Below, in pieces: positions 1 through 27,892 of a DNA stretch of 32,932 bases. The notes under the pieces are model-generated. The model did no database searches and was not told the origin of the DNA. It worked only from the letters and a program-made list of their open reading frames with translations. Positions within the stretch are counted from its first letter, which is position 1. Each line of letters begins with the position of its first letter. This DNA is from a virus. Lineage: Duplodnaviria > Caudoviricetes. The position numbers and the translations under genes were made by a program. Location of the stretch: IMG/VR virus record IMGVR_UViG_3300011423_000022, positions 1 through 32,932 of that record; one strand, 5' to 3'.

Positions 1-245
1 CGCCTGGGCCGCCTGGGGCCGCCTGGGGCCGCCTGGGCCGCCTGGGGCCGCCTGGGGCCGCCTGGGGCCGCCTGGGTTACAATACCGTTACCGGGGCCGC
101 CTGGGGCCGCCTGGGCCGCCTGGGGCCGCCTGGGGCCGCCTGGGGCCGCCTGGGGCCGCCTGGGCCGCCTGGGGCCGCCTGGGGCCGCCTGGGGCCGCCT
201 GGGGCCGCCTGGGGCCGCCTGGGGCCGCCTGGGGCCGCCTGGGCC
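1..245. repeat. Tandem array of GGGGCCGCCT / GGGCCGCCT units (about 22 copies), interrupted once at about 77-92
   Basis: Directly visible 9-10 bp units; the array runs off the left edge of the window; one further copy at 591-600. Confidence 0.97.
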
Positions 246-270
246 TAACCCTAGCCGGGTCTAGGGGTTA

Positions 271-309
271 CGGCCGGGGCGGGCCGGGGCGGGCCGGGGC
301 GGGCCGGGT
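271..309. repeat. Short tandem repeat of GGGCCGGGGC (about 3.5 copies)
   Basis: Directly visible; the same motif recurs at about 523-541. Confidence 0.9.
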
Positions 310-478
310 AATCCGCGATTTTAGGCGTAAAAACGTGGGCGGCGGCCGTAAGTAGCTGATAGGTAAGGGGTTAACGGGTTCAGGCCCGTAAGTAGTATAC
401 TAGTCAATAGGTTACGGGTAGCGCCGGACGGGGCCGCCGGGGCCGGTTCGATAAAACCCGAGTAAAAGTAGGAATAAC

Positions 479-507
479 TTTACAGACGGGGATAGGCGCG
501 GTAGGAT
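479..507 (+). promoter_or_regulatory. sigma70-like promoter P1 upstream of the ribozyme-punctuated operon
   Basis: TTTACA (479-484), 17 bp spacer, TAGGAT (502-507), with an A-rich upstream tract; same -35 hexamer and spacing as the promoter at 5029-5057. Confidence 0.7.
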
Positions 508-739: not shown

Positions 740-811
740 ATGGTCTGGTCAACCATTACTACCCGCGAGAACCCGCGGGCGACGCGAAGATTTGAGAAGA
801 TGGATGAATGA
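740..811 (+). CDS. Putative 23-aa peptide MVWSTITTRENPRATRRFEKMDE
   Basis: GGAGGAGG directly upstream of ATG 740; its TGA (809-811) overlaps the start of hammerhead 1, as the stops of later genes overlap their ribozymes. Confidence 0.45.
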   Translation: MVWSTITTRENPRATRRFEKMDE

Positions 812-866
812 ACCTAGAAACCGGCCGATGGCCGGTCGCGGGAATTTACCCGCCTGATGAGGGTTC
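810..866 (+). ncRNA. Type II hammerhead ribozyme HH1; predicted cleavage after C837
   Basis: GAACCT-A-GAAA, stem III CCGGCC/GGCCGG, TC, stem I GCGGG/CCCGC with loop AATTTA, CTGATGA, GGGTTC closing stem II. Confidence 0.9.
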
Positions 867-871
867 AAATC

Positions 872-1252
872 ATGAAGACCACGCACGCGCGCTTCAACAA
901 CGCCGGATCGATGCTCGTCGTTTCTCTGAAGAAGGGAAAGAAGGCGATTCAGATCTCGGTCAAGCGTCGGATCGCCGGTGAGAAGCTGGCCACGGGATGC
1001 CGTGAAAGCTTCTCGCTCGATCAGGCATCGGAAGCGCAGAAGTCCTTCGAAACGCTCCGCTCCGCGGCGCTCGCGAAGGGTTGGATCGAAGCCCCGCGGA
1101 CGCTGAAGTCGGCGTTTTCGGAGATCCCGGCGCCGCCTGTCGTCGCTGTCGTCGAACCGACACCGGCGCCCGAGCCGGTTCCGGAGCCGGTCGTCGTCGT
1201 CGAAGAGATCAAGCCGGTCGAGAAGCCGGTCGAGAAGAAGTCGAAGAAGTAG
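872..1252 (+). CDS. Hypothetical protein with a Pro/Glu/Val/Lys low-complexity tail; N-terminal part weakly WGR-like
   Basis: ATG 872 follows GAGGG in HH1; EAQKSFETLRSAALAKGW resembles the C-terminal helix of WGR domains (weak). Confidence 0.8.
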   Translation: MKTTHARFNNAGSMLVVSLKKGKKAIQISVKRRIAGEKLATGCRESFSLDQASEAQKSFETLRSAALAKGWIEAPRTLKSAFSEIPAPPVVAVVEPTPAPEPVPEPVVVVEEIKPVEKPVEKKSKK

Positions 1253-1253
1253 T

Positions 1254-1317
1254 GAACCACGAAACCGTCCTCCTTCGGGAGGACGGTCGCCCGAATTGAC
1301 GGGCCTGATGAGGGTTC
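1254..1317 (+). ncRNA. Type II hammerhead ribozyme HH2; predicted cleavage after C1288
   Basis: GAACCAC-GAAA, 9-bp stem III with cUUCGg loop, TC, stem I GCCCG/CGGGC with loop AATTGA, CTGATGA, GGGTTC. Confidence 0.92.
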
Positions 1318-1322
1318 ATCAC

Positions 1323-1523
1323 ATGAAACTGATCAACACGACCACCCGCAACGCGTTCTACACGATCCACCGCTGGAATGCGAACGTCATCGTTCGCTTC
1401 GGCAAGATCGGAACGAAGGGCCAGATTCGTGTGTTTGAATTCGTCGATCCGCGGTCTGCTCAGTGCTTCTTGGAAGAGAAGATCGAAAAGAAGCTGGATC
1501 GGAACTACGTCGTCGCGGCGTGA
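1323..1523 (+). CDS. WGR-domain-like protein
   Basis: FYTI...VIVRFGKIGTKGQ...A...LEEKIEKKLDRNY matches the WGR pattern (FY...WGRIG..GQ...K..KGY). Confidence 0.8.
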   Translation: MKLINTTTRNAFYTIHRWNANVIVRFGKIGTKGQIRVFEFVDPRSAQCFLEEKIEKKLDRNYVVAA

Positions 1524-1526
1524 TCG

Positions 1527-1585
1527 GAACCTAGAAACCGCCCATCGTGGGCGGTCGCCCGAATCGACGGGCCTGATGAGGGTTC
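1527..1585 (+). ncRNA. Type II hammerhead ribozyme HH3; predicted cleavage after C1556
   Basis: GAACCT-A-GAAA, stem III CCGCCCA/TGGGCGG, TC, GCCCG-AATCGA-CGGGC, CTGATGA, GGGTTC. Confidence 0.9.
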
Positions 1586-1590
1586 ATCAC

Positions 1591-1767
1591 ATGACTTTGA
1601 ACGAGATCATCCAGAAGCTTCTGGATGCCAAGCGGCTTCTCGAAGCCGATGGCCGGGATTGCGACACCGTGTGTGTCTTCTCCCAGACCGGAAGCGAGAT
1701 CGTAAAAATCGATCTCAAGGACGACGGATCCGGGATGGATAACCTGGATCTGTATCTCGGAACCTAG
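1591..1767 (+). CDS. Hypothetical acidic protein (58 aa)
   Basis: ATG 5 nt after HH3; TAG stop lies inside HH4. Confidence 0.75.
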   Translation: MTLNEIIQKLLDAKRLLEADGRDCDTVCVFSQTGSEIVKIDLKDDGSGMDNLDLYLGT

Positions 1768-1815
1768 AAACCGCCTCCGGGCGGTCGCCCGAATCGACGG
1801 GCCTGATGAGGGTTC
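1760..1815 (+). ncRNA. Type II hammerhead ribozyme HH4; predicted cleavage after C1786
   Basis: GAACCT-A-GAAA, stem III CCGCC/GGCGG, TC, GCCCG-AATCGA-CGGGC, CTGATGA, GGGTTC. Confidence 0.9.
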
Positions 1816-1818
1816 ATC

Positions 1819-2019
1819 ATGTTTGAAATCGGACAACGAGTTCATCTTCCATCAATCGATGAGGATTTCCCGGAAGCATTCGGGATCGTCGTTGAAGTCG
1901 GAGAAGTGGGCACACCCTGGGCGTGGGCTCGCGTGAAAATCGAAGACGCGTATCTCACCGGGGACGAAGAGCCGGATGGCACCGTGGAAGTGGATTTCAA
2001 GAACATTCGATCGATCTGA
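1819..2019 (+). CDS. Small acidic protein, possible SH3/KOW-like beta-barrel
   Basis: MFEIGQRV...GIVVEV...ARVKI pattern; bounded by HH4 and HH5. Confidence 0.75.
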   Translation: MFEIGQRVHLPSIDEDFPEAFGIVVEVGEVGTPWAWARVKIEDAYLTGDEEPDGTVEVDFKNIRSI

Positions 2020-2077
2020 ACCTAGAAACCGCCGGCGATCCGGCGGTCGCCCGAATCGACGGGCCTGATGAGGGTTC
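2018..2077 (+). ncRNA. Type II hammerhead ribozyme HH5; predicted cleavage after C2048
   Basis: GAACCT-A-GAAA, stem III CCGCCGG/CCGGCGG, TC, GCCCG-AATCGA-CGGGC, CTGATGA, GGGTTC. Confidence 0.9.
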
Positions 2078-2082
2078 ATCAC

Positions 2083-2817
2083 ATGACAAAAGAGAGGATT
2101 CTGGACAAGCTTCAGAAGATCAAGGCGCATCAAGAAAGCGCTGAGGAGATCGGCAACGAGGCCGAGGCTCAGGCGTTTGCCGAGATGCTCCAAAAGCTTC
2201 TCTTCACCCACCGGCTCGAGATGTCCGATTTGGACTTCGAGAAGATGGAGAAAGAGGAGCCGATTGAGAAGCACGCGATCAGGTATCCGGAGGATCTGAA
2301 ACACAAGAAATCCCGGGTGATCTGGCGCGAGCGCCTCACGTCGATGGCCGCTCGGGCGCACTTCTGTCGGATCCTGGTGCATCGCGGAAGTTCGCAGTGC
2401 ACCTTGGTCGGTCGGAAGAGCGATATCGAGATCGCCGAATACATGGTCGTCACGCTCATGTCGGCGGCGCGTCGCTTGTCCAAATCGGCGGATGCAAAGT
2501 ATCGTCGAGAAACGGGTCTTGGGGCGGCTTCTGGCTTCCGGGATTCGTGGCTCGCGGCCTTCATCGGTCGTCTCGAACAGAGGTTCGACGAGCTGCGTCG
2601 TGAGCACGAAACGACGAGTTCGGTGGCTCTGGTGCGAGTCAACAAATCGGAGGCAGCGGTTCTTGGCTTCATGAAGCAATTCGGCAAAGCCAACTCGATC
2701 GGGCAACTCAATGCCAGCAATTCAGAAGGCTGGCATCGTGGAACGGCCGCCGCAAACGCGATCAATCTGAAAGCGAATGCGATGAAGGATGGCGGCACGA
2801 AGAAACAAATCGGATGA
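2083..2817 (+). CDS. DUF2786-domain protein
   Basis: N-terminal ILDKLQKIKA...NEAEAQAFAEMLQKLLFTHRL matches the DUF2786 pattern; later FRDSWLAAF and GWHRGTAAANAINL segments fit this family. Confidence 0.8.
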   Translation: MTKERILDKLQKIKAHQESAEEIGNEAEAQAFAEMLQKLLFTHRLEMSDLDFEKMEKEEPIEKHAIRYPEDLKHKKSRVIWRERLTSMAARAHFCRILVHRGSSQCTLVGRKSDIEIAEYMVVTLMSAARRLSKSADAKYRRETGLGAASGFRDSWLAAFIGRLEQRFDELRREHETTSSVALVRVNKSEAAVLGFMKQFGKANSIGQLNASNSEGWHRGTAAANAINLKANAMKDGGTKKQIG

Positions 2818-2876
2818 ACTCAGAAACGCGGGTTGTCAACCCGCGTCGCCCGAATCGACGGGCCTGATGAGGGTTC
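2816..2876 (+). ncRNA. Type II hammerhead ribozyme HH6; predicted cleavage after C2847
   Basis: GAACTC-A-GAAA, stem III CGCGGGTT/AACCCGCG, TC, GCCCG-AATCGA-CGGGC, CTGATGA, GGGTTC. Confidence 0.9.
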
Positions 2877-2883
2877 AAACATC

Positions 2884-3075
2884 ATGGGAATTCACGACGT
2901 GCGACCATGTCCTTGTGGCTCTGGACAGAGCTCGTGGTGGGAATTGGATGCGCGAGGCATTCCTCTCGATCGAGTGTGCAAGAAGTGCAAGAAAGAGAAG
3001 CTCGCGCGCTACCGCAAGGATGTGCTGGTGAATCCGAATTATCAATCGGACGAGCCGATCTACGAAGACGACTGA
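2884..3075 (+). CDS. Small Cys-containing protein, probably zinc-binding
   Basis: CPCGSG and CKKC motifs; bounded by HH6 and HH7. Confidence 0.75.
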   Translation: MGIHDVRPCPCGSGQSSWWELDARGIPLDRVCKKCKKEKLARYRKDVLVNPNYQSDEPIYEDD

Positions 3076-3132
3076 ACCCAGAAACCTGGCATCGTGCCAG
3101 GTCGCCGGAATCAACCGGCCTGACGAGGGTTC
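3074..3132 (+). ncRNA. Type II hammerhead ribozyme HH7; predicted cleavage after C3103
   Basis: GAACCC-A-GAAA, stem III CCTGGCA/TGCCAGG, TC, stem I GCCGG/CCGGC (compensatory change) with loop AATCAA, CTGACGA, GGGTTC. Confidence 0.9.
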
Positions 3133-3133
3133 T

Positions 3134-3334
3134 ATGGACAAAGAAATCCGGTGGGTGCGCGTGCTTCATCAGGGACGGGATCGGATCCTGTGCTGGGGTT
3201 GCTTCGTGGATCAGAAGGCAACTCTCCTGAACCGGGTGTTCGGTGCATCGCAGACCTGCGAGGTCTGTGGCAAGTCGGACAAGAAGGGCGCGCCGATCTT
3301 CGATACTCGCGAAGAAAGGGATGGTGAGCGGTGA
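3134..3334 (+). CDS. Small zinc-finger-like protein
   Basis: CWGC and CEVC pairs; ATG 1 nt after HH7. Confidence 0.7.
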   Translation: MDKEIRWVRVLHQGRDRILCWGCFVDQKATLLNRVFGASQTCEVCGKSDKKGAPIFDTREERDGER

Positions 3335-3540
3335 GTCCGCTCATCATCACCGGTTCAGACAAGATCCAGTTCGCTCGGGTCTTGGCTCTGAAAGCTCGCT
3401 TGGGTCTCGAAATCAAGGGACTCAGGTTCCGTGGAAGGAGCGCGTATTCCATCCTGAAATCGGAACTCGGGATGCATGGTTCGCGAGAGAAAGTTTACGC
3501 GGATCTGCAGAAAGCTGTCGACGAGGTGCTTGAGCAATGA
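3331..3540 (+). CDS. Hypothetical phage protein
   Basis: GTGA overlap with the upstream stop and ATGA overlap downstream; protein-like sequence. Confidence 0.75.
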   Translation: MSPLIITGSDKIQFARVLALKARLGLEIKGLRFRGRSAYSILKSELGMHGSREKVYADLQKAVDEVLEQ

Positions 3541-3686
3541 GGGACCTGTTCAGGATCATCGAAGCTTACTTCCAGGACAGAAGTCTGGCGAACTACTCAG
3601 ACGATGCTCTCTGGCAGGCAACGAAAACTCTCCGCTCAGTCGCTGACTGGGCGGAGCGGCAGCGGATCGATCGGAGGAGGAATTGA
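3537..3686 (+). CDS. Hypothetical protein (49 aa, MRDLFRIIEAYF...)
   Basis: Translated by hand; ATGA coupling to the previous gene, GAGGTG upstream. Confidence 0.6.
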   Translation: MRDLFRIIEAYFQDRSLANYSDDALWQATKTLRSVADWAERQRIDRRRN

Positions 3687-3811
3687 TCACTCTCATCGAA
3701 TACAATAGACGATTCGACCTCATCGTCGAAGCGTTCAGAACTGGCTACTTCTCTGCGGACGAAGCGTCGGCTGCCATGTCGGAGCTGACGTCGATGGTCA
3801 TCGTGCACTGA
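3683..3811 (+). CDS. Hypothetical protein (42 aa, TTG start)
   Basis: GGAGGAGG upstream, TTGA coupling; TGA overlaps the start of HH8. Confidence 0.6.
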   Translation: MITLIEYNRRFDLIVEAFRTGYFSADEASAAMSELTSMVIVH

Positions 3812-3873
3812 ACCTAGAAACCTGGCTCTTTCGGGAGCCAGGTCGCCCGAATCGACGGGCCTGAAGAGGGTTC
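3810..3873 (+). ncRNA. Type II hammerhead ribozyme HH8; predicted cleavage after C3844
   Basis: GAACCT-A-GAAA, stem III CCTGGCTC/GAGCCAGG with TTCG-containing loop, TC, GCCCG-AATCGA-CGGGC, CTGAAGA, GGGTTC. Confidence 0.9.
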
Positions 3874-3875
3874 AA

Positions 3876-4043
3876 ATGACAATCAAGATCTACATGCGAG
3901 ATGGCACAGAAGATATGCTCATGAATGTGGGCTCATCCTTCGAGCTCCACCAGGGAATCTTCTCAACCACCGATGCTCTCGGCAATCAAATATCGTATGA
4001 CGATGTCGAGAGAATCGTGGTGGTGGAGGACGACGATGAATGA
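3876..4043 (+). CDS. Hypothetical acidic protein (55 aa, MTIKIYMRDG...)
   Basis: Translated by hand; ATG 2 nt after HH8. Confidence 0.65.
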   Translation: MTIKIYMRDGTEDMLMNVGSSFELHQGIFSTTDALGNQISYDDVERIVVVEDDDE

Positions 4044-4299
4044 CGGACGCGTCGTCCAATATCGCACGCTGAGGCGCCATCCGGCGCGGCGTGGTCATCC
4101 TGCACTCGAAGCAGGCACGATCCTGTGGCTGATTGAGTATCCCAATGGGAGACTCTTCACCTATGGATATGTGCTCAAAGTGAGTGCTGCCAAGGTGAAA
4201 GCCAGTCTCACTGGAACTCAACAGGAGATCGATTTCAATTCGGTTTCAGATCCCGAAGCAGTGATGCAATCGTGGATCGATCCTGGAGATGTCCGATGA
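4036..4299 (+). CDS. Hypothetical protein
   Basis: GGAGG upstream of ATG 4036; overlaps both neighbours. Confidence 0.65.
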   Translation: MNDGRVVQYRTLRRHPARRGHPALEAGTILWLIEYPNGRLFTYGYVLKVSAAKVKASLTGTQQEIDFNSVSDPEAVMQSWIDPGDVR

Positions 4300-4517
4300 A
4301 GTGGGCAGTAACGTCCGTCTCGATCTCGGTCAAGACGCGCCGCCGGATGGGCAAGGCGGCCGTCTCTGTGGTGGATGTCGAGAATCTAAGGAGATTCGGC
4401 GTCAAGGAACCACTCTCCACCGCACTTGATGTGGAGAAGTATTTCGAGAAGACTCGTTCAGGGAGAGAGTCAGTCGCGAAGGTCGTGGATGTTCGCTTGC
4501 TGGACGAGAGGAACTAG
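4296..4517 (+). CDS. Hypothetical protein
   Basis: ATGA coupling, GGAG upstream; TAG stop inside HH9. Confidence 0.65.
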   Translation: MKWAVTSVSISVKTRRRMGKAAVSVVDVENLRRFGVKEPLSTALDVEKYFEKTRSGRESVAKVVDVRLLDERN

Positions 4518-4569
4518 AAACCGGGGCTCTGCCCCGGTCGCCAGAATCAACTGGCCTGACGAGGTTCCT
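4509..4569 (+). ncRNA. Type II hammerhead ribozyme HH9; predicted cleavage after C4539
   Basis: AGGAACT-A-GAAA, stem III CCGGGGC/GCCCCGG, TC, stem I GCCAG/CTGGC with loop AATCAA, CTGACGA, GGTTCCT (stem II changed on both strands). Confidence 0.9.
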
Positions 4570-5004
4570 GTGAAACAATCTCGTATCCCGACCATTGAGG
4601 AACTCGATCGCCATGCACACGACTTGGCTGACGCGTTCGATATCCTCTTGCTTCTAGACGAAAAATATCCTCTTGGATACGGTCGTGCTGCGATCGTGAT
4701 TCTTCGGGAGGATGAAATCCCTGAAGATCTACGGTTGCTCGTCGCACCGGACACCATCGTAAAGATCGTCGCAGCACCACCGATCACCGATGAAACTTCG
4801 TATGCTGCTGTGCTGCACGAAATGGGGCACCACTGCAGTCCGACCGGGTTTGACAAGACTCTGGGCACGATGCTCAGAGAAGAGTCCGCGTGGGAGTGGG
4901 CCGAATACTATGCTCTCCACTGGAGCGTGGCCATGGCTCATCTGAAAGAGATCGCACTCGGAACTTACCGTCGAGCAATTGATAAGCGGAACCGGTCTCG
5001 ATAA
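4570..5004 (+). CDS. HExxH zincin-like metallopeptidase domain protein
   Basis: VLHEMGH followed by EESAW, as in ImmA/IrrE-type zincins; GTG directly after HH9. Confidence 0.7.
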   Translation: MKQSRIPTIEELDRHAHDLADAFDILLLLDEKYPLGYGRAAIVILREDEIPEDLRLLVAPDTIVKIVAAPPITDETSYAAVLHEMGHHCSPTGFDKTLGTMLREESAWEWAEYYALHWSVAMAHLKEIALGTYRRAIDKRNRSR

Positions 5005-5028: not shown

Positions 5029-5057
5029 TTTACATCGGAGCTTGTCTGTAGTATAAT
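5029..5057 (+). promoter_or_regulatory. sigma70-like promoter P2
   Basis: TTTACA (5029-5034), 17 bp spacer, TATAAT (5052-5057), intergenic. Confidence 0.85.
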
Positions 5058-19100: not shown

Positions 19101-19428
19101 CCTCCGCGCCCTCTTCTCCAGTGGCCCATGTCTTGCGGAAATCTTCTCCAAGAATCTGGAGTTCTTTGCCTGTGGCTCCTGTGCCAGCACGAATCTGCTT
19201 CAGGGCATCATCGAACTGGAATCCAGCAGTGGTGATGGCTGCACCAATTGCCATGATTGGCACAGTGAGTCCAGCTGTGAGAGCACCACCGAGTGCCTTG
19301 GATCCTTTGGCAATCGTGTCGGTGGCTTTCTCAGATTTTTGAACTCCCTCTTTCAGGTCGTCGTCCAGTTTCGATAGGTCTCCTCGAATCTCGACGAACG
19401 CCTTTCCGAGCAGTCCGCTTATCGCCAT
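16177..19428 (-). CDS. Tail tape measure protein
   Basis: 1083 aa, Ala/Gly-rich; N-terminal LGKAFVEIRGD; LTAGLTVPI; hydrophobic segment and WKNWD-type aromatic repeats. Confidence 0.95.
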   Translation of the reverse strand: MAISGLLGKAFVEIRGDLSKLDDDLKEGVQKSEKATDTIAKGSKALGGALTAGLTVPIMAIGAAITTAGFQFDDALKQIRAGTGATGKELQILGEDFRKTWATGEEGAEEVAAALTNVAKRTSLTGEPLQQLTRQYINFAGLLKTDVAPLIMELTGVFNQWGVSTDQQAGKLDHLWKVVQITGVQMGPLMAAVTRFGPLLREMGFSLEEATALLGNMEKSGVSIKGVMAGLSAASLKFAKDNIPVKAGIAATVAEIVRLGAGEKSASLALSTFGKNGLAMRDAILSGALSVDKLMGAIGKSTETINKADDDTDSFAEKLLELKNVAMAAFAPIGIQLVQAFHDLIPVLLPVVQAVGQAAEWFAALPKPVQMAAFAVAGLLAALGPAIVIFGTLIGSISTIITTFGAFTLTTGIVGGAVTSVIAALGGLIPALGAVILAVTAVYQVWKNWDWIAAFFKGAWAKISGMLDAFPSILLPILGPLGAIIAVWRNWTQITNIVAGVYNAVKTWILDKLGPIFTWLQGKLDAVKGWFNGIAEAGGYKKMVATVGTETKKLETNMVQPIKNATDAATTAFQGTALGAKNLTTATGNLTAAQRTALQAQWGLTDGQKKGKTAADEYLESVKELTAALSGDGVQKEARKTMDALAKLGTTTGLTRGETEQIVSTLEAYLTKMRLLGKTTSTEFARVEQAHRNLQKALIDQEYATAQRAILNDIGVAQMEADRKAMDAKIKTADDYAAYQRELANEEGLRLMEQDRKIMEQRKPLFEKIFSGIGGAEFGKDLAGVIMGAFQGGGDVGKSIGGLVGTKIGTNITEKLGGTFGKLIQGKIGGQMGKMLGSTLGSIIPGVGTLLGGMLGDFLGKGLQKVLPKLGKMFKSFGNKLKGMFGGPSEKELAGRKEAGGVRDKLLKGLNKGQRAELGVAIEGAWKGNEKGAATVIALRDAFIRAGLPGDMGVSYANKIWQAEGKGPEAVKKVVGEIKGLLGKNMPQLMFGGLVNAGKGSLAMLHGAEVVAPLDQFKKMLDNAREKRGQDIKQTSIMFQPQFNGTLSTEMKALVRQQLWPMFLEVLKESGTLRGDVKTVLGV

Positions 19429-19800
19429 GTTTTCGTTTCTTCTTTTCTCGTCGCTTCCGAAGCATCTTTCCGAGATCGTTATCGAGCATCGATCGCTCGC
19501 TTCTCAACCGATCTCGTTCTTTCCCGACCACAGGACGCGTCACTCGATCTTTCATCCACGATGAAAGCACTGGCAATTTCTTCTTGCGACCAAGAGCCAC
19601 ATGAAGATATGCCGCGAGCTTCAGATCATTGATCTCTCGCTTCCTCTTGGTCTCATACAAGAGAATCGCACGAAACCACTGAACCCACGTGAGACCCCAA
19701 AACTCATCTTCCGAGATCCCAATTACTGAGGCAAAGTCGAGGCAGGCATCCCATTCGACGTCGTCGTATCTCCAGTCGACGCTGCCTCCGTCAGAGGGTC
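19331..19800 (-). CDS. Tail assembly chaperone C-terminal (gpT-like) part, probably reached by a -1 frameshift
   Basis: The -1 frame is open from about 19800 (GPSDGGSVDW...GISEDEFWGLTWVQWFR) and continues into ORF 19331-19660; FWxLT is typical of such extensions; the start coordinate is approximate. Confidence 0.7.
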
Positions 19801-20199
19801 CGATGGCTGTCTTGCAGCCTCCGCTCTCCTCTGCTCGAGCTCCTCTGCCTGCCGCATCGTAACAGCGAAACTGTTCTGGAAAGCTTGGACGATCGGCATG
19901 TGATGATGCTGCCAGAACTGCGCAAGATCACCTTCATACTCACCATCAATGAGCTCGGCCACATTATCGATCGTCCACGGAGTTGGTGGCTGATGCTCTG
20001 CTTTACGAGCCGATTCCAATTCAGCCCAGAGAAGAGCATGCAGCTCCATGAATCCGAGCTGATTGTTGTCCACACGATTGGCGAACTCGAGGATCCCGAT
20101 CCCCAATTCTTTCTGGAGAAGAAATGCCCCGAGTGCGCCAAATCGCAGATTGTATTGCTTGCCTCCCAGCGTTATGGGAACGAATCGGTGATTTGACAT
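19723..20199 (-). CDS. Tail assembly chaperone (gpG-like)
   Basis: Between tail tube and tape measure; ITLGGKQYNLRFG..A...LQKELG pattern. Confidence 0.8.
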   Translation of the reverse strand: MSNHRFVPITLGGKQYNLRFGALGAFLLQKELGIGILEFANRVDNNQLGFMELHALLWAELESARKAEHQPPTPWTIDNVAELIDGEYEGDLAQFWQHHHMPIVQAFQNSFAVTMRQAEELEQRRAEAARQPSDPLTEAASTGDTTTSNGMPASTLPQ

Positions 20200-22729: not shown

Positions 22730-22819
22730 CTACCTCTTAGACCTTGGCGGATGCTTCTTCATCCCGCCTGTTTCTTGCTTGTTCATCGGAGGGAGTTGCT
22801 GTTTGGCCATCATTAGCAT
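22730..22819 (-). CDS. Possible small basic peptide (MLMMAKQQLPPMNKQETGGMKKHPPRSKR)
   Basis: GAGGAG upstream; ends 2 nt before the connector start; overlaps the 3' end of the glycosyltransferase. Confidence 0.35.
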   Translation of the reverse strand: MLMMAKQQLPPMNKQETGGMKKHPPRSKR

Positions 22820-23978
22820 ACTCTCCTCTTTTGTGAGTTTGGAGGACTTGATGGAACTGCTCGGCGATGTTGGGCCACTGGAATTCGGGTTTCTTTGCTC
22901 GGGCATATCCCTTTCCTCCAATCAGAGCACACCATTCGGGATCTCGATATCCCTTGTCGATGGTGGCCATCACATGTTCTACAGAAGTGGCTCCTCCGAT
23001 GACATTGATGCCCTTCGCAGTGACGATCTTGTGGGTGACTGGCATGTAATGCACAGCACCCTTGGGCCACTCGCCAAGAGCAGCCCATTCCACGACAGCA
23101 TTCGGAATGCCACAGGCCATGGATTCGTGAGTCGTGAGACCCCATCCCTCGCCAGACGAAGTGCTGATGTGAAGATTCAAGCACTGATACATGAGTCGAA
23201 GAGCCTCTTCCGGAACGAAATCCGATGGCTTCAATTTGACCTTGCTCATGATCATGTGACTAGCAATCCCATGATATCGAGCAAGCTGCATCACGTCGTA
23301 GCCGATGTCGTATCTCGAGCAATGCAAGAAGAGATACGCATTTTCTGGCTTGCCAACATTATGCCACCAACCAGCGAATCCCTCGATCGTCTGATCAAGC
23401 CTCTTGCGAGGCTGATTGCGATTGATGTTGCCGACGATGAAGGCTTTCTCACCGAGTCGATGCAGACCAAGAGTCTCGCGTGCTGTGGCCTGATCTCCTG
23501 GATAGTAGATCTCAGAATCGACTCCATGAGGAATGATGTGTGATATTCCTTTGTAGCCACCATCCTTCGCTTCCTTCTGGCCAAACTCGGTATACCAGAT
23601 GGCTGCTGTGAGACCATTGAGGATCTCTCCTGACGCCATGTTCCGCCCATCTACAGGCATGTATGCCACGATGGGCACGTCAGGTGGTGCGTCGGTGCCC
23701 AGGAACTTGGTGACCAGCCAGGGATCCTGGAGGATGCACACGACATCCGGGTTCACACGACGCACCACCTCACTGAATCGGCCGACTCCGAAGAAGTCGC
23801 CACCGAGTTGCGCAGGATAGATGGGATATTGATGCGGATGGGGATCACCAAGATAATTGATCCCGAGCACATGGATGTCCCATCGATCAGTCAGATGCGC
23901 AAGAACATTGTGAGTGACTCGAGAGAACCCAGTCGGAGTGACTGCATCACCGACCCAGAGGAGACGAGGCTTAGGCAT
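22737..23978 (-). CDS. GT-B fold glycosyltransferase (GT4-like)
   Basis: TGFSRV, IPHGVD, NRNQPRKR and EGWGLTTHESMACGIP motifs; AAGGAGG before ATG 23978. Confidence 0.9.
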   Translation of the reverse strand: MPKPRLLWVGDAVTPTGFSRVTHNVLAHLTDRWDIHVLGINYLGDPHPHQYPIYPAQLGGDFFGVGRFSEVVRRVNPDVVCILQDPWLVTKFLGTDAPPDVPIVAYMPVDGRNMASGEILNGLTAAIWYTEFGQKEAKDGGYKGISHIIPHGVDSEIYYPGDQATARETLGLHRLGEKAFIVGNINRNQPRKRLDQTIEGFAGWWHNVGKPENAYLFLHCSRYDIGYDVMQLARYHGIASHMIMSKVKLKPSDFVPEEALRLMYQCLNLHISTSSGEGWGLTTHESMACGIPNAVVEWAALGEWPKGAVHYMPVTHKIVTAKGINVIGGATSVEHVMATIDKGYRDPEWCALIGGKGYARAKKPEFQWPNIAEQFHQVLQTHKRGEYANDGQTATPSDEQARNRRDEEASAKV

Positions 23979-24801
23979 CGAGAACCTCCTTCTGAGCAGC
24001 ACCATAGGTCCAATCGATGCCACTGAATCCGGACACCTCGTGGAAGCGTCCGAGATGGATGGAGCTCTCTTTGCCAATGTGTTGAGCAAACGATGGCACG
24101 CTGCTCAAGAAGTGCTCTGCTCGCCAGACCATGGTGGCCCAGTCTTTCAACAGGAGATCAAATCCCTGTCCGGTGTCCCATTCTTTCAGGCGAGTGTAGA
24201 TGTAATCGAAGGCAGATGATGCATCAGCTCGAGTGAATGCGAGAGCCTGATTGCCATAGAATCCCTTCACAGGGAAATTCCATGACGTCTGCCCTGCCTT
24301 CCATGCATCGCACACCATCTTGTAGGGAGTGGCGAACGAATACATGTGACGATCACGACGTGCATGTTGGCTGAGCCAGCGATCTACCGAGCCAAGGAAA
24401 TCGCGACACACATCGATATCGTCTTCGAGAAAGAGGATCCACGGAGTTCTCGATTCGATCCCAATCCGGAAACACTCGAGCGCATTTCCGTTTCGCGAGC
24501 GACGCAGATGCCCATCTCGCTTGTCCTTCAGAGCATACTGCGGACTGAGTCGACTGCTCAGGTCTTCCGTGAGAGGATGAAACATCACCTTCTGTGGATG
24601 CACAGCAGGGATCTCGGCCATTGCAACTCGCTTGTATTCATCGAGTCCGATAGATCCAGAGTCAATGATGTCGAGCTGAAATGGGATGGACGATTCCCAC
24701 AACCCAGAGCGCGCCATGTTGCGCAACATCTGAGGCAGATAGTTCTCCTGTGGAGATCGGTTGATGGTCCCGACGACGATGCAGTATTTTGGGGTCTTCA
24801 T
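23971..24801 (-). CDS. GT-A fold glycosyltransferase
   Basis: TINRSPQENYL, WILFLEDD, FYGNQAL, FDLLL and QHIG motifs. Confidence 0.75.
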   Translation of the reverse strand: MKTPKYCIVVGTINRSPQENYLPQMLRNMARSGLWESSIPFQLDIIDSGSIGLDEYKRVAMAEIPAVHPQKVMFHPLTEDLSSRLSPQYALKDKRDGHLRRSRNGNALECFRIGIESRTPWILFLEDDIDVCRDFLGSVDRWLSQHARRDRHMYSFATPYKMVCDAWKAGQTSWNFPVKGFYGNQALAFTRADASSAFDYIYTRLKEWDTGQGFDLLLKDWATMVWRAEHFLSSVPSFAQHIGKESSIHLGRFHEVSGFSGIDWTYGAAQKEVLDA

Positions 24802-25493
24802 GTTCCTTCCTGCTGATATGACCAATCGACACCAGCAAAGTGTCGAGTCCTCATTATTGACCTCTTGCGGAAGGCATGCGTGAGGGACTCATCTCCTGCA
24901 TGCTGGACGAAGTCTGGATGAGATGCCACAAAGGGTTCGTGGGCCCACTGTCGCATCAGCATATCGAATCCACTCGTCCGCCAACCAAGCGAGTATGATC
25001 GTCGCCATTTTGGCAACGCTTTCTTCACATATTTCCCGAAGTCCTTGAGATCAGTGTATCGCATGGCCACACACATACATCCATACGATGTCCTGGGAGA
25101 GAGCCACTCCTCTTTCCCAGGTCTAGATCCTTTGAATGTGATGAATGTATAGACCTTCTGGCGACCAGCATGCTTGTCGAGCCATCGCTTGACGGACCCG
25201 AGGAAGTCAGTGCAGATCACAAGATCGTCTTCCAAGTGGAGCACCCAATCGCATTCTGGCATGCCTTGCAACAGAGCAAGACCATTCTCATTACGAGTGA
25301 GCTTTCTTTCTGGGATATGAACGACGATCCCAGGATGCGATTCGATCTCCATCCATGAAGTTTCTGGCCCACTCACGAAGAGATGCAGTTGGCCATCGCT
25401 GAGACCTTGCTGCACTAATTGATCGACTGTTGCTCGAAGATAGTTCTTTCGAGGTCGTCGATTCGCCGTGGTCATTCCGATGAGCAGATTCAT
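24798..25493 (-). CDS. GT-A fold glycosyltransferase, paralogue of the adjacent gene
   Basis: TANRRPRKNYL, WVLHLEDD, FDMLM and VQHAG motifs align by eye with 23971-24801. Confidence 0.75.
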   Translation of the reverse strand: MNLLIGMTTANRRPRKNYLRATVDQLVQQGLSDGQLHLFVSGPETSWMEIESHPGIVVHIPERKLTRNENGLALLQGMPECDWVLHLEDDLVICTDFLGSVKRWLDKHAGRQKVYTFITFKGSRPGKEEWLSPRTSYGCMCVAMRYTDLKDFGKYVKKALPKWRRSYSLGWRTSGFDMLMRQWAHEPFVASHPDFVQHAGDESLTHAFRKRSIMRTRHFAGVDWSYQQEGT

Positions 25494-26296
25494 GCTGGGA
25501 ATCTTTGTTGGGTTCGGGCACAGAAAACTGGTCCGTGTTTGGAGATAATCGCTGATTGTTTAGCGCAGCTCTCCACGAATAGATCGCCACCGAGTCGACG
25601 ATAATGCATCGCTTTCCATTCGCCATGCTGATTCCACTTCTGCCGAGCTTCAGCACTCGGCATATCAAGCATGATCAGTTCTTTCGTGCGGACATTATGT
25701 CTCTTTAGCCAAGACTCCGTCTCCGCACGATACATCTCCAAACGGCACGTAACGATCGCTTGGACCTGTCGAGTCGGGAGGAATAGAGGCTCCGCGTGAC
25801 GCAAGAACGCTTCGTATTTGCTCCTGTCCGCATTTTCCTCTTTCGTTGGATCGCGGCAGATGACGCCATCCATATCCACCATGATAGAGGAAAGATGCAC
25901 ACTTCGCCAGATATTCCACGGAAACACACGTGGAGTCTGAAGAGTCTCGAAGGCGAAGTCGAGCATATCGTTCTTGCCGGGAGCGACGTAAACAGCAGAT
26001 CGGATGATCTTGACATCAGGTCTGGCTCGGACACATCGTTCCACAGCCATGCCCATTTCAGTGCCACGGAGGAGCGAATCGTCCAGAAGCAAGATCGTCT
26101 TCAGTTCAGATGTCACATTATCGTTGCAGTATTGATCAAGACTCAACACTGTTCTCTGCATGTGAAGACCAAGCATCAACGAAGCCATCAACCCAGATCG
26201 AGGAATGCCAACAATCATATCGAACTGAGGCAGTTCGTGCATTCGACGGACCATGATGTAGTTCAGGTCGGTGATGGTTCGGACACTGATCTTCAT
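25490..26296 (-). CDS. Phosphoribosyltransferase-like domain fused to a HAD-like domain
   Basis: IVGIPRSG and ILLLDDSLLRGT (PRPP-binding loop); VDMDGVIC (HAD motif I DxDG). Confidence 0.8.
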   Translation of the reverse strand: MKISVRTITDLNYIMVRRMHELPQFDMIVGIPRSGLMASLMLGLHMQRTVLSLDQYCNDNVTSELKTILLLDDSLLRGTEMGMAVERCVRARPDVKIIRSAVYVAPGKNDMLDFAFETLQTPRVFPWNIWRSVHLSSIMVDMDGVICRDPTKEENADRSKYEAFLRHAEPLFLPTRQVQAIVTCRLEMYRAETESWLKRHNVRTKELIMLDMPSAEARQKWNQHGEWKAMHYRRLGGDLFVESCAKQSAIISKHGPVFCARTQQRFPA

Positions 26297-26847
26297 GCGA
26301 TGCCACACGCTCCAAGATTAATCCATCCATGATCGGGGCCACGAACACGATCCCGATTGAGGAGTTGAACACTTTTGAATCCTGCCTCGATTAGAGACTG
26401 CTGCAAGAATCGTGGAGTGAACAGACAATGATGCCAGTTTGGATCATTCGCTTTGCTCGTCTTCGCATATGCGAAGATCCGTCCAGCAATCCACAGATAC
26501 GGGTTGCGCTTCTCGTTGAATCGAGTCCAGTTGTCGTGATGAATCGGCGACACATTGTTTTCTTCAAGATCGACGAGAGCCTTCGCGATCTTCAGCCCAT
26601 CGACCGTGAACACCTCAAGAGTCCCATCATCTTTCAAGACTCGATGCCATTCCAGAAGAGTGTCCGCCACCTGATACCACGGAACATGCTCAAGAACATG
26701 TGACGCATAGATCAGGTTGAAGGACCTGTCCGGGAATGGCATCTTGCGACAATCGCCAACATGGTCGACATGAGGACCAGGCAGGATATCCATCGTCTCG
26801 AATCCTTTGAGACGTGAATTCCTGGGACCGATCTCAAGTCGACGCAT
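26293..26847 (-). CDS. Class I SAM-dependent methyltransferase
   Basis: LEIGP, MPFPDRSFNLIYASHVLEH and EWHRVLKDDG motifs. Confidence 0.88.
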   Translation of the reverse strand: MRRLEIGPRNSRLKGFETMDILPGPHVDHVGDCRKMPFPDRSFNLIYASHVLEHVPWYQVADTLLEWHRVLKDDGTLEVFTVDGLKIAKALVDLEENNVSPIHHDNWTRFNEKRNPYLWIAGRIFAYAKTSKANDPNWHHCLFTPRFLQQSLIEAGFKSVQLLNRDRVRGPDHGWINLGACGIA

Positions 26848-26848
26848 A

Positions 26849-27364
26849 TCAGTTCTCGTTCACTGGACCAGTGTCGGTGCCAGCAAGGACGAACATGCCC
26901 GAGATGTGCGCCACATCGGTGTTCGCACGAGACAGATTGACCTTGATATCCTGTCGGATGTATTGCTTGCATCCAGCGAGATCGAGGTTGTCCCGAATCG
27001 TGCGAGGAGCAGGAGTGGTCACCATTTCTGCTGCAGTGACCGTCACATCGACGAAGTCGGCATCCGGATAGGCATCAATTTCCACGAACGTGATGCCATC
27101 ATCCGAGTGACGATATCGACGACTGATGACCACAGATTCTCCAGTGTTCAACACCGGAAGAACACAGACAGCACCCTGAGCAGACAAGAACAATGCCGGA
27201 GTGGTGCGATCGACAGCCACACCACCATGCCAGAAGTTGTCCTGGATGCCAGACGTGACTGATGCTGCCACCACCGATCGTGCTCGACCTGCTGTCACGG
27301 CATAGAGCACAGACCCCGCATTGATATGCGAGGAGTGGGCTGCTCCCATTTCAGCTGCTTGCAT
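26849..27364 (-). CDS. Putative capsid decoration protein 2
   Basis: Shares HSSHINAGS, G..VDR and NLDLAGCKQYIR with the adjacent gene; follows the capsid genes. Confidence 0.6.
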   Translation of the reverse strand: MQAAEMGAAHSSHINAGSVLYAVTAGRARSVVAASVTSGIQDNFWHGGVAVDRTTPALFLSAQGAVCVLPVLNTGESVVISRRYRHSDDGITFVEIDAYPDADFVDVTVTAAEMVTTPAPRTIRDNLDLAGCKQYIRQDIKVNLSRANTDVAHISGMFVLAGTDTGPVNEN

Positions 27365-27377
27365 CTTGACTCCTTGT

Positions 27378-27403
27378 GAAGAGGGCTCCGGAGAGCCCTC
27401 CTC
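27378..27403 (-). terminator. Intergenic hairpin, possible weak terminator or mRNA stabiliser
   Basis: GAGGGCTC-TCCG-GAGCCCTC stem; only a short U run follows. Confidence 0.5.
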
Positions 27404-27406
27404 TAG

Positions 27407-27892
27407 TTAGGGAAACGGAAGAGTCTCGACTCCTCCGAGCACGCAAACACCAGCGAGCGACAACTCGCCAGATGCCATGATATCGGCACGCACGAACCGA
27501 CGAGCGCCTGCCAGATCGACGTTGAGAATGACACAGGTTTCCAGCTCGGAACCTTCGTCATTGCCCTCGAGAGTGACGATCGTGGGATTCGTGTCGCCAT
27601 ACTCGGCAAACGTCCCAGGAGTGCTGGATTCCGGATCAGTGGGAGCAGCCGTCGTTGCGTCCATGACCGTGATTGCGAAGTCCATCGACTCGCCAGATGC
27701 GATGGTGACAGTGACAGGCCACGCGAACTGACATGAGAGAGGCATGCCATAGAGAGCACGATCGATGACACCACCCTCGAGAGTATCGCCACCCGTCAGT
27801 TCCTGTCCAGCCAGGCCAAAGACGGTGAGAATGCGCGAGCCAGAGTCGACCTGACTCGCGTGCGATGCTCCCGGGGCATTCGGAGTTGACAT
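27407..27892 (-). CDS. Putative capsid decoration protein 1
   Basis: Directly after the major capsid gene; GGVIDR, NVDLAGARRFVRA and VLGG...P motifs. Confidence 0.65.
   Translation of the reverse strand: MSTPNAPGASHASQVDSGSRILTVFGLAGQELTGGDTLEGGVIDRALYGMPLSCQFAWPVTVTIASGESMDFAITVMDATTAAPTDPESSTPGTFAEYGDTNPTIVTLEGNDEGSELETCVILNVDLAGARRFVRADIMASGELSLAGVCVLGGVETLPFP

Follow-up and report, generated by a model that had tools for sequence, protein, structure and literature searches.

Nine hammerhead ribozymes in front of small phage genes

The DNA analysed here, positions 1 to 32,932 of IMG/VR record IMGVR_UViG_3300011423_000022 (the whole 32,932-nt stretch is referred to as the window), is a tailed-phage contig with portal, capsid, tail and tape-measure genes on the minus strand and small genes plus an ATP-dependent ligase on the plus strand. 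A structure descriptor applied to both strands of all 32,932 bases identified nine hammerhead ribozymes (HH1–HH9), all on the plus strand and none outside 809–4569, and a covariance model recovered the identical nine. Each supplies, from its core and the first bases of stem II, the sole Shine-Dalgarno (SD)-like motif of the gene that follows. The order of parts – 5′ arm, GAAA, stem III, UC, stem I, CUGANGA, 3′ arm – is that of a type II hammerhead, with stems I and III loop-closed and stem II open in 9/9 copies, and with the CUGANGA core, GAA, the A15.1-U16.1 pair and a cleavable NUH (a GUC triplet) also present in 9/9. The ribozymes and the open reading frames (ORFs) around them are as follows.

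740..811, plus strand: 23-codon ORF with a strong SD (-11.5 kcal/mol); its TGA opens the 5′ arm of HH1
809..867, plus strand: HH1, type II hammerhead; predicted cut after 837; GAGG at 859-862
872..1252, plus strand: ORF of 126 aa behind HH1; ATG start; no Pfam or PHROG match
1253..1318, plus strand: HH2, C-GAAA form with a bulged A; predicted cut after 1288; GAGG at 1310-1313
1323..1523, plus strand: ORF of 66 aa behind HH2; ATG start; WGR domain (PF05406)
1527..1585, plus strand: HH3; predicted cut after 1556; best score to Rfam Hammerhead_II, 29.6 bits
1591..1767, plus strand: ORF of 58 aa behind HH3; ATG start; its TAG lies within the arm-GAAA junction of HH4
1760..1815, plus strand: HH4; predicted cut after 1786
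1819..2019, plus strand: ORF of 66 aa behind HH4; ATG start
2017..2078, plus strand: HH5; predicted cut after 2048
2083..2817, plus strand: ORF of 244 aa behind HH5; ATG start; DUF7168 (weak DUF2786), phrog_421
2815..2877, plus strand: HH6; predicted cut after 2847
2884..3075, plus strand: ORF of 63 aa behind HH6; ATG start
3074..3132, plus strand: HH7; predicted cut after 3103
3134..3811, plus strand: four overlapping ORFs (3134, 3331, 3537, 3683) behind HH7; the first has ATG and 66 codons, the inner three their own SD
3809..3874, plus strand: HH8; predicted cut after 3844
3876..4517, plus strand: three overlapping ORFs (3876, 4036, 4296) behind HH8; the first has ATG and 55 codons; the last TAG is inside HH9
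4509..4569, plus strand: HH9; predicted cut after 4539; GAGGT, with a GTG start directly adjoining
4570..5004, plus strand: ORF of 144 aa behind HH9; GTG start; last ribozyme-led gene

The predicted cuts would give units of 230–799 nt with leaders of 30–36 nt. The first-pass annotation of this DNA had proposed that each product keeps a hairpin at either end, which folding bears out with stem I at -6.6 to -8.1 and stem III at -11.4 to -19.4 kcal/mol; stem II is at about -8 to -11 kcal/mol. The junction between stem II and GAAA occurs in two forms, A-GAAA and C-GAAA, found together in 9/19 multi-copy clusters of the wider family described below. HH2 is of the C-GAAA form, its A being bulged one step out, and is the only one of the nine window copies with a Watson-Crick 10.1-11.1 pair directly beside G12. 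The missing pair is read as the marker of a variant because hammerheads with exceptions at this position are known to cleave (Perreault et al. 2011, PMC3088659; for this article, as for PMC5052635, PMC2839356 and PMC6765202, statements refer to its accessible parts).

Against Rfam, the window gave no match at the gathering score. For RF02276 (Hammerhead_II) 5/9 copies matched at E <1, the best at 29.6 bits against a gathering score of 37. The topology and core are those of RF02276, from which the present family differs in having a loop I of 6 nt (AAUNRA), an additional base of stem II adjoining the core and no pseudoknot. In lieu of a pseudoknot, docking probably occurs between two conserved features, loop I and the outer G-C pairs of stem II.

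Starts, stops and Shine-Dalgarno motifs in the window

GAGG occupies positions +5 to +8 of the core in 9/9 copies (GAGGG in eight, GAGGT in HH9), in agreement with the first-pass annotation, which had read this motif from the end of the core plus stem II in all nine. Pairing starts only at G10.1, so that the GA of GAGG belongs to the catalytic core. The annotated start codons were likewise confirmed, at 872, 1323, 1591, 1819, 2083, 2884, 3134 and 3876 (ATG) and 4570 (GTG). The close spacing to stem II stands, although the range of 0–7 nt was recounted as 0–6, with gaps of 4, 4, 5, 3, 4, 6, 1, 1 and 0 nt for HH1–HH9. The upstream stops, said to lie inside the element or at most 3 nt away, are where they had been placed: a TGA at -8 from GAAA in HH5–HH8, a TAG at -2 in HH4 and HH9, a TAG at 1250-1252 abutting HH2 and a TGA at 1521-1523 three nt ahead of HH3, with the ORF upstream of HH1 having only 23 codons. 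The window alone proves little, because the nine copies are related and G8-A9-G10.1 of the core gives GAG free; with one family and a core-forced GAG, evidence against chance must come from relatives.

Relatives and conservation of the ribozyme

Relatives were collected with three patterns that fixed neither stem II nor the start codon, giving 103 distinct hammerheads outside this phage. Removal of one unrelated copy, three near-duplicates and the nine copies of one phage (L147) left 90 relatives, which fall into 29 sequence clusters without a shared long alignment; copies within one phage are alike. L092 and L094-L096 (identical to the window), L001 and copies near a contig end had been dropped before counting. 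A first viral pattern was too specific and gave 0 hits, a second gave six loci with one hammerhead of another kind and was dropped, and the prokaryote genome collection gave 0 hits. L147, kept as a contrast, carries at least nine related hammerheads (L147:2200-5430) with the SD separate from the ribozyme, several of them followed by a sequence complementary to the core and by another core-like strand.

In an alignment of 28 copies, seven of them from the window, 95.8% of cells were paired and two-sided changes occurred in 9/12 pairs, stem II included, with 0/500 shuffles as good and slid controls at 24–46%. In the 90 relatives too, two-sided changes support pairing in all three stems. When elements were anchored on stem I alone, 98/102 had the standard core, a figure that is not a free estimate because an intact core was the criterion by which most loci had been selected; the other four had U3-A8 (one) or an insertion after A6 (three). 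These variants are the U3-A8 covariation at L080 (minus strand, 1855) and the insertions at L034, L076 and L121, with the start codon still next. Both types have been described as active natural hammerheads (PMC3088659). Stem III varies freely, and no aptamer-like conserved domain was seen.

Use of the Shine-Dalgarno motif among the relatives

An ATG or GTG was found 6–12 nt after G10.1 in 82/90 relatives, representing 27/29 clusters, a start being counted if its ORF had at least 30 codons or ran off the locus. The background for this spacing was 17% at random positions (5874/35013) and 22% at other GAGs (1010/4586). In these 82 relatives the spacer was 4–10 nt with a mode of 6, and none (82/82) had a second SD between stem II and the start. 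Inspection by eye of the eight relatives without such a start showed a TTG in place in two, a separate SD further on in five, and neither in one. Four of the eight (L072, L090, L132 and L136) have a strong anti-core hairpin with a probability of 0.81–1.0; among copies with a start this probability exceeded 0.5 in 11/80. Such a hairpin may seal the core after cleavage. The AUG inside CUGAUGA was also considered as a start and rejected, being in frame in 25/38 copies and not above the value for copies with C or A at N7 at the same spacing (9/19, p 0.25).

The position most informative for selection is N7, the base of CUGANGA that the ribozyme leaves free. It is G in 8/10 copies in which position 10.2 is not G, against 19/78 otherwise (p 0.001), and in 7/9 against 8/26 when counted by cluster (p 0.02); a G at N7 combined with a non-G 10.2 restores GAGGAG. 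Close starts also go with a G at N7 (14/25 vs 6/57; 7/7 for the closest; 11/17 vs 5/21 by cluster), where it adds a register 3 nt upstream. In L147, with its separate SD, N7 is G in 0/9 copies. The compensation and the association with close starts argue for selection for SD use, and selection for a ribosome site is thereby shown at the level of sequence comparison. The proposal that the ribozyme supplies the SD is thus upheld by the relatives, through their spacing, the lack of any other SD and N7 compensation.

Upstream stops and compaction

The longest upstream ORF ended 2–14 nt before GAAA in 49/78 scored copies (86 had enough flank), corresponding to 23/27 clusters, whereas six shifted anchors gave only one or two stops each at the same offset, out of 36–76. 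When ORFs were traced from ribozyme to ribozyme, 24/52 ended at the arm, one entered the ribozyme and 27 ended earlier, mostly far earlier. Stop placement is, however, explained by compaction, since ribozyme-free junctions inside the cluster overlap in 5/5 cases and stops also lie at the arm in 5/9 copies of L147, whose SD is outside the ribozyme. The view of the ribozyme as a stop signal therefore holds in part: stops do cluster at the 5′ arm, but each is the ordinary stop codon of the upstream gene and no separate signal.

Proposed mechanism and alternatives

On balance we lean towards constitutive, self-cleaving type II hammerheads with a built-in ribosome site that cut an early transcript into short messages. 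By hammerhead chemistry, cleavage would follow GUC and need no trigger, and the units would begin with a 5′-OH on stem I and end in stem III with a cyclic phosphate. Whether such a 5′-OH end protects or exposes a message depends on the host nucleases. After the cut only stem II, of 6–7 bp, would join the pieces, until it comes apart by itself or is opened by a ribosome terminating at the upstream stop; a 30S subunit could then bind GAGG. The effect of release on initiation would be a modest increase and not an on/off switch. Compaction most likely created the overlap by removing the spacer, after which selection retained the SD within the ribozyme. A precedent for processing is provided by tandem phage hammerheads, all of which were cleaved in transcripts of about 2 kb (PMC3088659). 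The RNA contigs, at a depth of 2–6 and possibly holding DNA, were too shallow to be informative on cleavage: cut sites were crossed by 2/14 pieces where 4.9 were expected (P 0.08), the corresponding DNA control being 7/19 with an expectation of 7.7.

Several points speak against this interpretation. The GAGGG sites of the window are weak (-6.1 to -7.1) compared with those of most other plus-strand genes. An extra A lies between stem II and GAAA in 8/9 window copies and 43/90 relatives, and no published test of this A-GAAA junction was found in the literature searched. A G at N7 is, moreover, associated with A-GAAA junctions, and its compensation is clear only in C-GAAA copies (4/5 vs 1/40), the difference in A-GAAA copies not being significant (4/5 vs 18/38). 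No pseudoknot between loop I and the 3′ tail was detected, pairing of at least 4 bp occurring in 20/88 against a shuffled mean of 26. One RNA contig (734-886) spans the cut site of HH1. The cut product retains a hairpin 5 nt before the SD, and a similar engineered twister construct expressed poorly because of a hairpin close to its SD (PMC5052635). Finally, the folding model omits tertiary contacts, and the uncut lock could be tighter than predicted.

This last point would favour cleavage-gated initiation, in which the folded ribozyme locks the SD and the gene is translated only after the cut and strand release. Such gating fits with pairing from G10.1 onward, with G8-A9 bound in the core and with engineered twister versions that activate 5- to about 100-fold (PMC5052635). 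The SD is also predicted to be cheaper to open after release, in 74/82 relatives with a narrow footprint (7.9 to 5.2 kcal/mol) and in 65/82 with a wide one, although only 40/82 then gain more than 1.5. With one footprint for all genes, however, the median cost at the nine window sites fell from 9.9 kcal/mol before the cut to 9.2 after it, or to 9.0 when a ribosome occupied the stop, compared with 13.6 for 21 ordinary genes (relatives, 12.1 to 10.1), and in several window copies the released core strand can fold back onto the spacer (probability 0.00–0.72). Neither a conserved aptamer-like domain nor a constrained stem III points to a regulated lock, and homologues of the window genes occur both with and without a ribozyme in front. 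The first-pass idea that cleavage or termination frees the SD is thus not supported so far, the uncut site being predicted to be no harder to open than ordinary genes of this phage and most window copies gaining little on release; in these folding models a role as an on/off switch looks weak, and we regard gating as unlikely. Translational coupling, in which a ribosome terminating on the 5′ arm would melt stem II, block cleavage meanwhile and open the next SD, is quite unlikely. A terminating ribosome covers roughly 7–9 nt beyond the stop, stem II joins stop and start across 51–70 nt, and stops lie at the arm in 9/9 window copies (two just before it) as in most clusters. The modelled gain is nevertheless small (median 9.9 to 9.0), compaction suffices to place the stops, L147 has them despite its separate SD, and two strong hairpins separate stop and start, stable structure past a stop being known to lower re-initiation (PMC7518266).

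The repeats could also be recombination joints for gene cassettes, each bringing a stop and an SD for the incoming gene, in the manner of the PeSL cassettes of T4-type phages. Gene families shared between clusters turn up beside different neighbours, any one phage carries similar copies of the repeat, and among the matches listed ribozyme-led homologues made up 3/6 for the 244-aa gene (counting the U3-A8 variant of L080) and 1/6 for the gene at 4296; the PeSLs themselves are a precedent (PMC2839356). Recombination, however, would not require a catalytic core, whereas the core and the pairing have both been maintained, with compensatory changes, and no repeat-to-repeat joints were present among those listed from four DNA runs, whose contigs drop rare variants. 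As a full explanation this is hardly probable, but it can hold alongside constitutive processing. A reading in which the A-GAAA copies cleave slowly or not at all and serve solely as structured leaders between genes would agree with the non-standard junction in 8/9 window copies, with scores below the Rfam cut-off and with the RNA contig crossing a cut site, but is very improbable given an intact core, the presence of the form in nearly half of the relatives, its co-occurrence with C-GAAA and the published cleavage of hammerheads with a mismatch or a single pair in stem II (PMC3088659). A bolder reading, rather unlikely, is that of a widespread phage ribozyme family in which a single 60-nt RNA combines processing site, stop context and ribosome site and in which self-cleavage, with the terminating ribosome acting as release factor, licenses translation of each early gene, a natural counterpart of the engineered SD-masking ribozyme switches.

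Comparison with known systems

Clustered type II hammerheads separating single genes or short blocks, with processing proposed as their role, were reported by Perreault et al. 2011 (PMC3088659), and in this phage several same-strand copies likewise flank genes or short blocks. Clustered phage hammerheads are thus already known, and the apparently new part is the natural overlap of ribozyme and SD. The accessible text of that paper contains neither "Shine" nor "ribosome", whereas the nine copies here, all of one subfamily, place the SD within the core and the stop codon on the 5′ arm. The literature searched contained no report of the overlap; outside it lie most subscription papers and Dataset S1 of Perreault et al., which may list members. 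HHphage of haloviruses HF1/HF2 is a hammerhead lying 13 nt ahead of the start codon of an early gene, where a 5′ end has been mapped close to the cut; it is, however, a single copy in an archaeal virus with a core insertion, and no SD overlap is stated for it in the accessible part of the article (PMC3088659). Engineered hammerhead and twister switches similarly hold the SD in a ribozyme stem from which cleavage frees it (Felletti et al. 2016, PMC5052635); they are, however, designed and ligand-controlled with the SD fully paired, whereas here the arrangement is natural, half of the SD is catalytic core and no ligand domain was seen. PeSLs resemble the present elements as repeated regulatory elements between small variable early genes, but are promoters plus terminators rather than ribozymes (Arbiol et al. 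2010, PMC2839356). In the window, no repeat had a promoter match and one terminator-like match fell at HH4 (five found, 6.5 expected). RiboJ-type insulators, once cleaved, leave a fixed leader bearing a 5′ hairpin, as would be the case here, although their ribosome site lies outside the ribozyme.

The purpose of phage and bacterial hammerheads was described as undefined in a 2019 review (PMC6765202). The present family ties a ribozyme to translation initiation, with sequence evidence for double selection on one base, and its roughly 100 natural variants, two junction forms and contrast phage (L147) are suited to a direct reporter test. For engineering, it would also offer an insulator and a ribosome site in very compact form.

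Phage setting and other features

Two promoter-like sequences border the ribozyme cluster.

479..507, plus strand: sigma70-like promoter match (9/12), upstream of the cluster; weak
5029..5057, plus strand: near-consensus sigma70-like promoter (11/12), directly past the cluster

The first is considered weak because three sigma70-like matches were found against 3.0 expected in shuffles. A tRNA gene search of the window found none. No host was assigned, since cultured phages gave no real DNA match to the window and capsid relatives reached at most 36%.

The 126-aa protein behind HH1 has a tail (window 1085-1250) rich in Pro, Val, Glu and Lys, and its relatives, from five groups of loci, most of them not directly ribozyme-led, match only the first ~75 residues. 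At the contig end, window 1-310 holds about 22 tandem copies of a 9–10 nt GC-rich unit followed by a second unit present three times; run X5 has its greatest DNA depth there (35 falling to 11), and this end may be a genome terminus. On the structural side, the capsid and head-tail adaptor genes are separated by genes for a glycosyltransferase, a methyltransferase and two phrog_5707 paralogues (22737-27892), and a gap at 19428-20199 separates the tail assembly gene from the tape measure gene, the usual site of a programmed frameshift.

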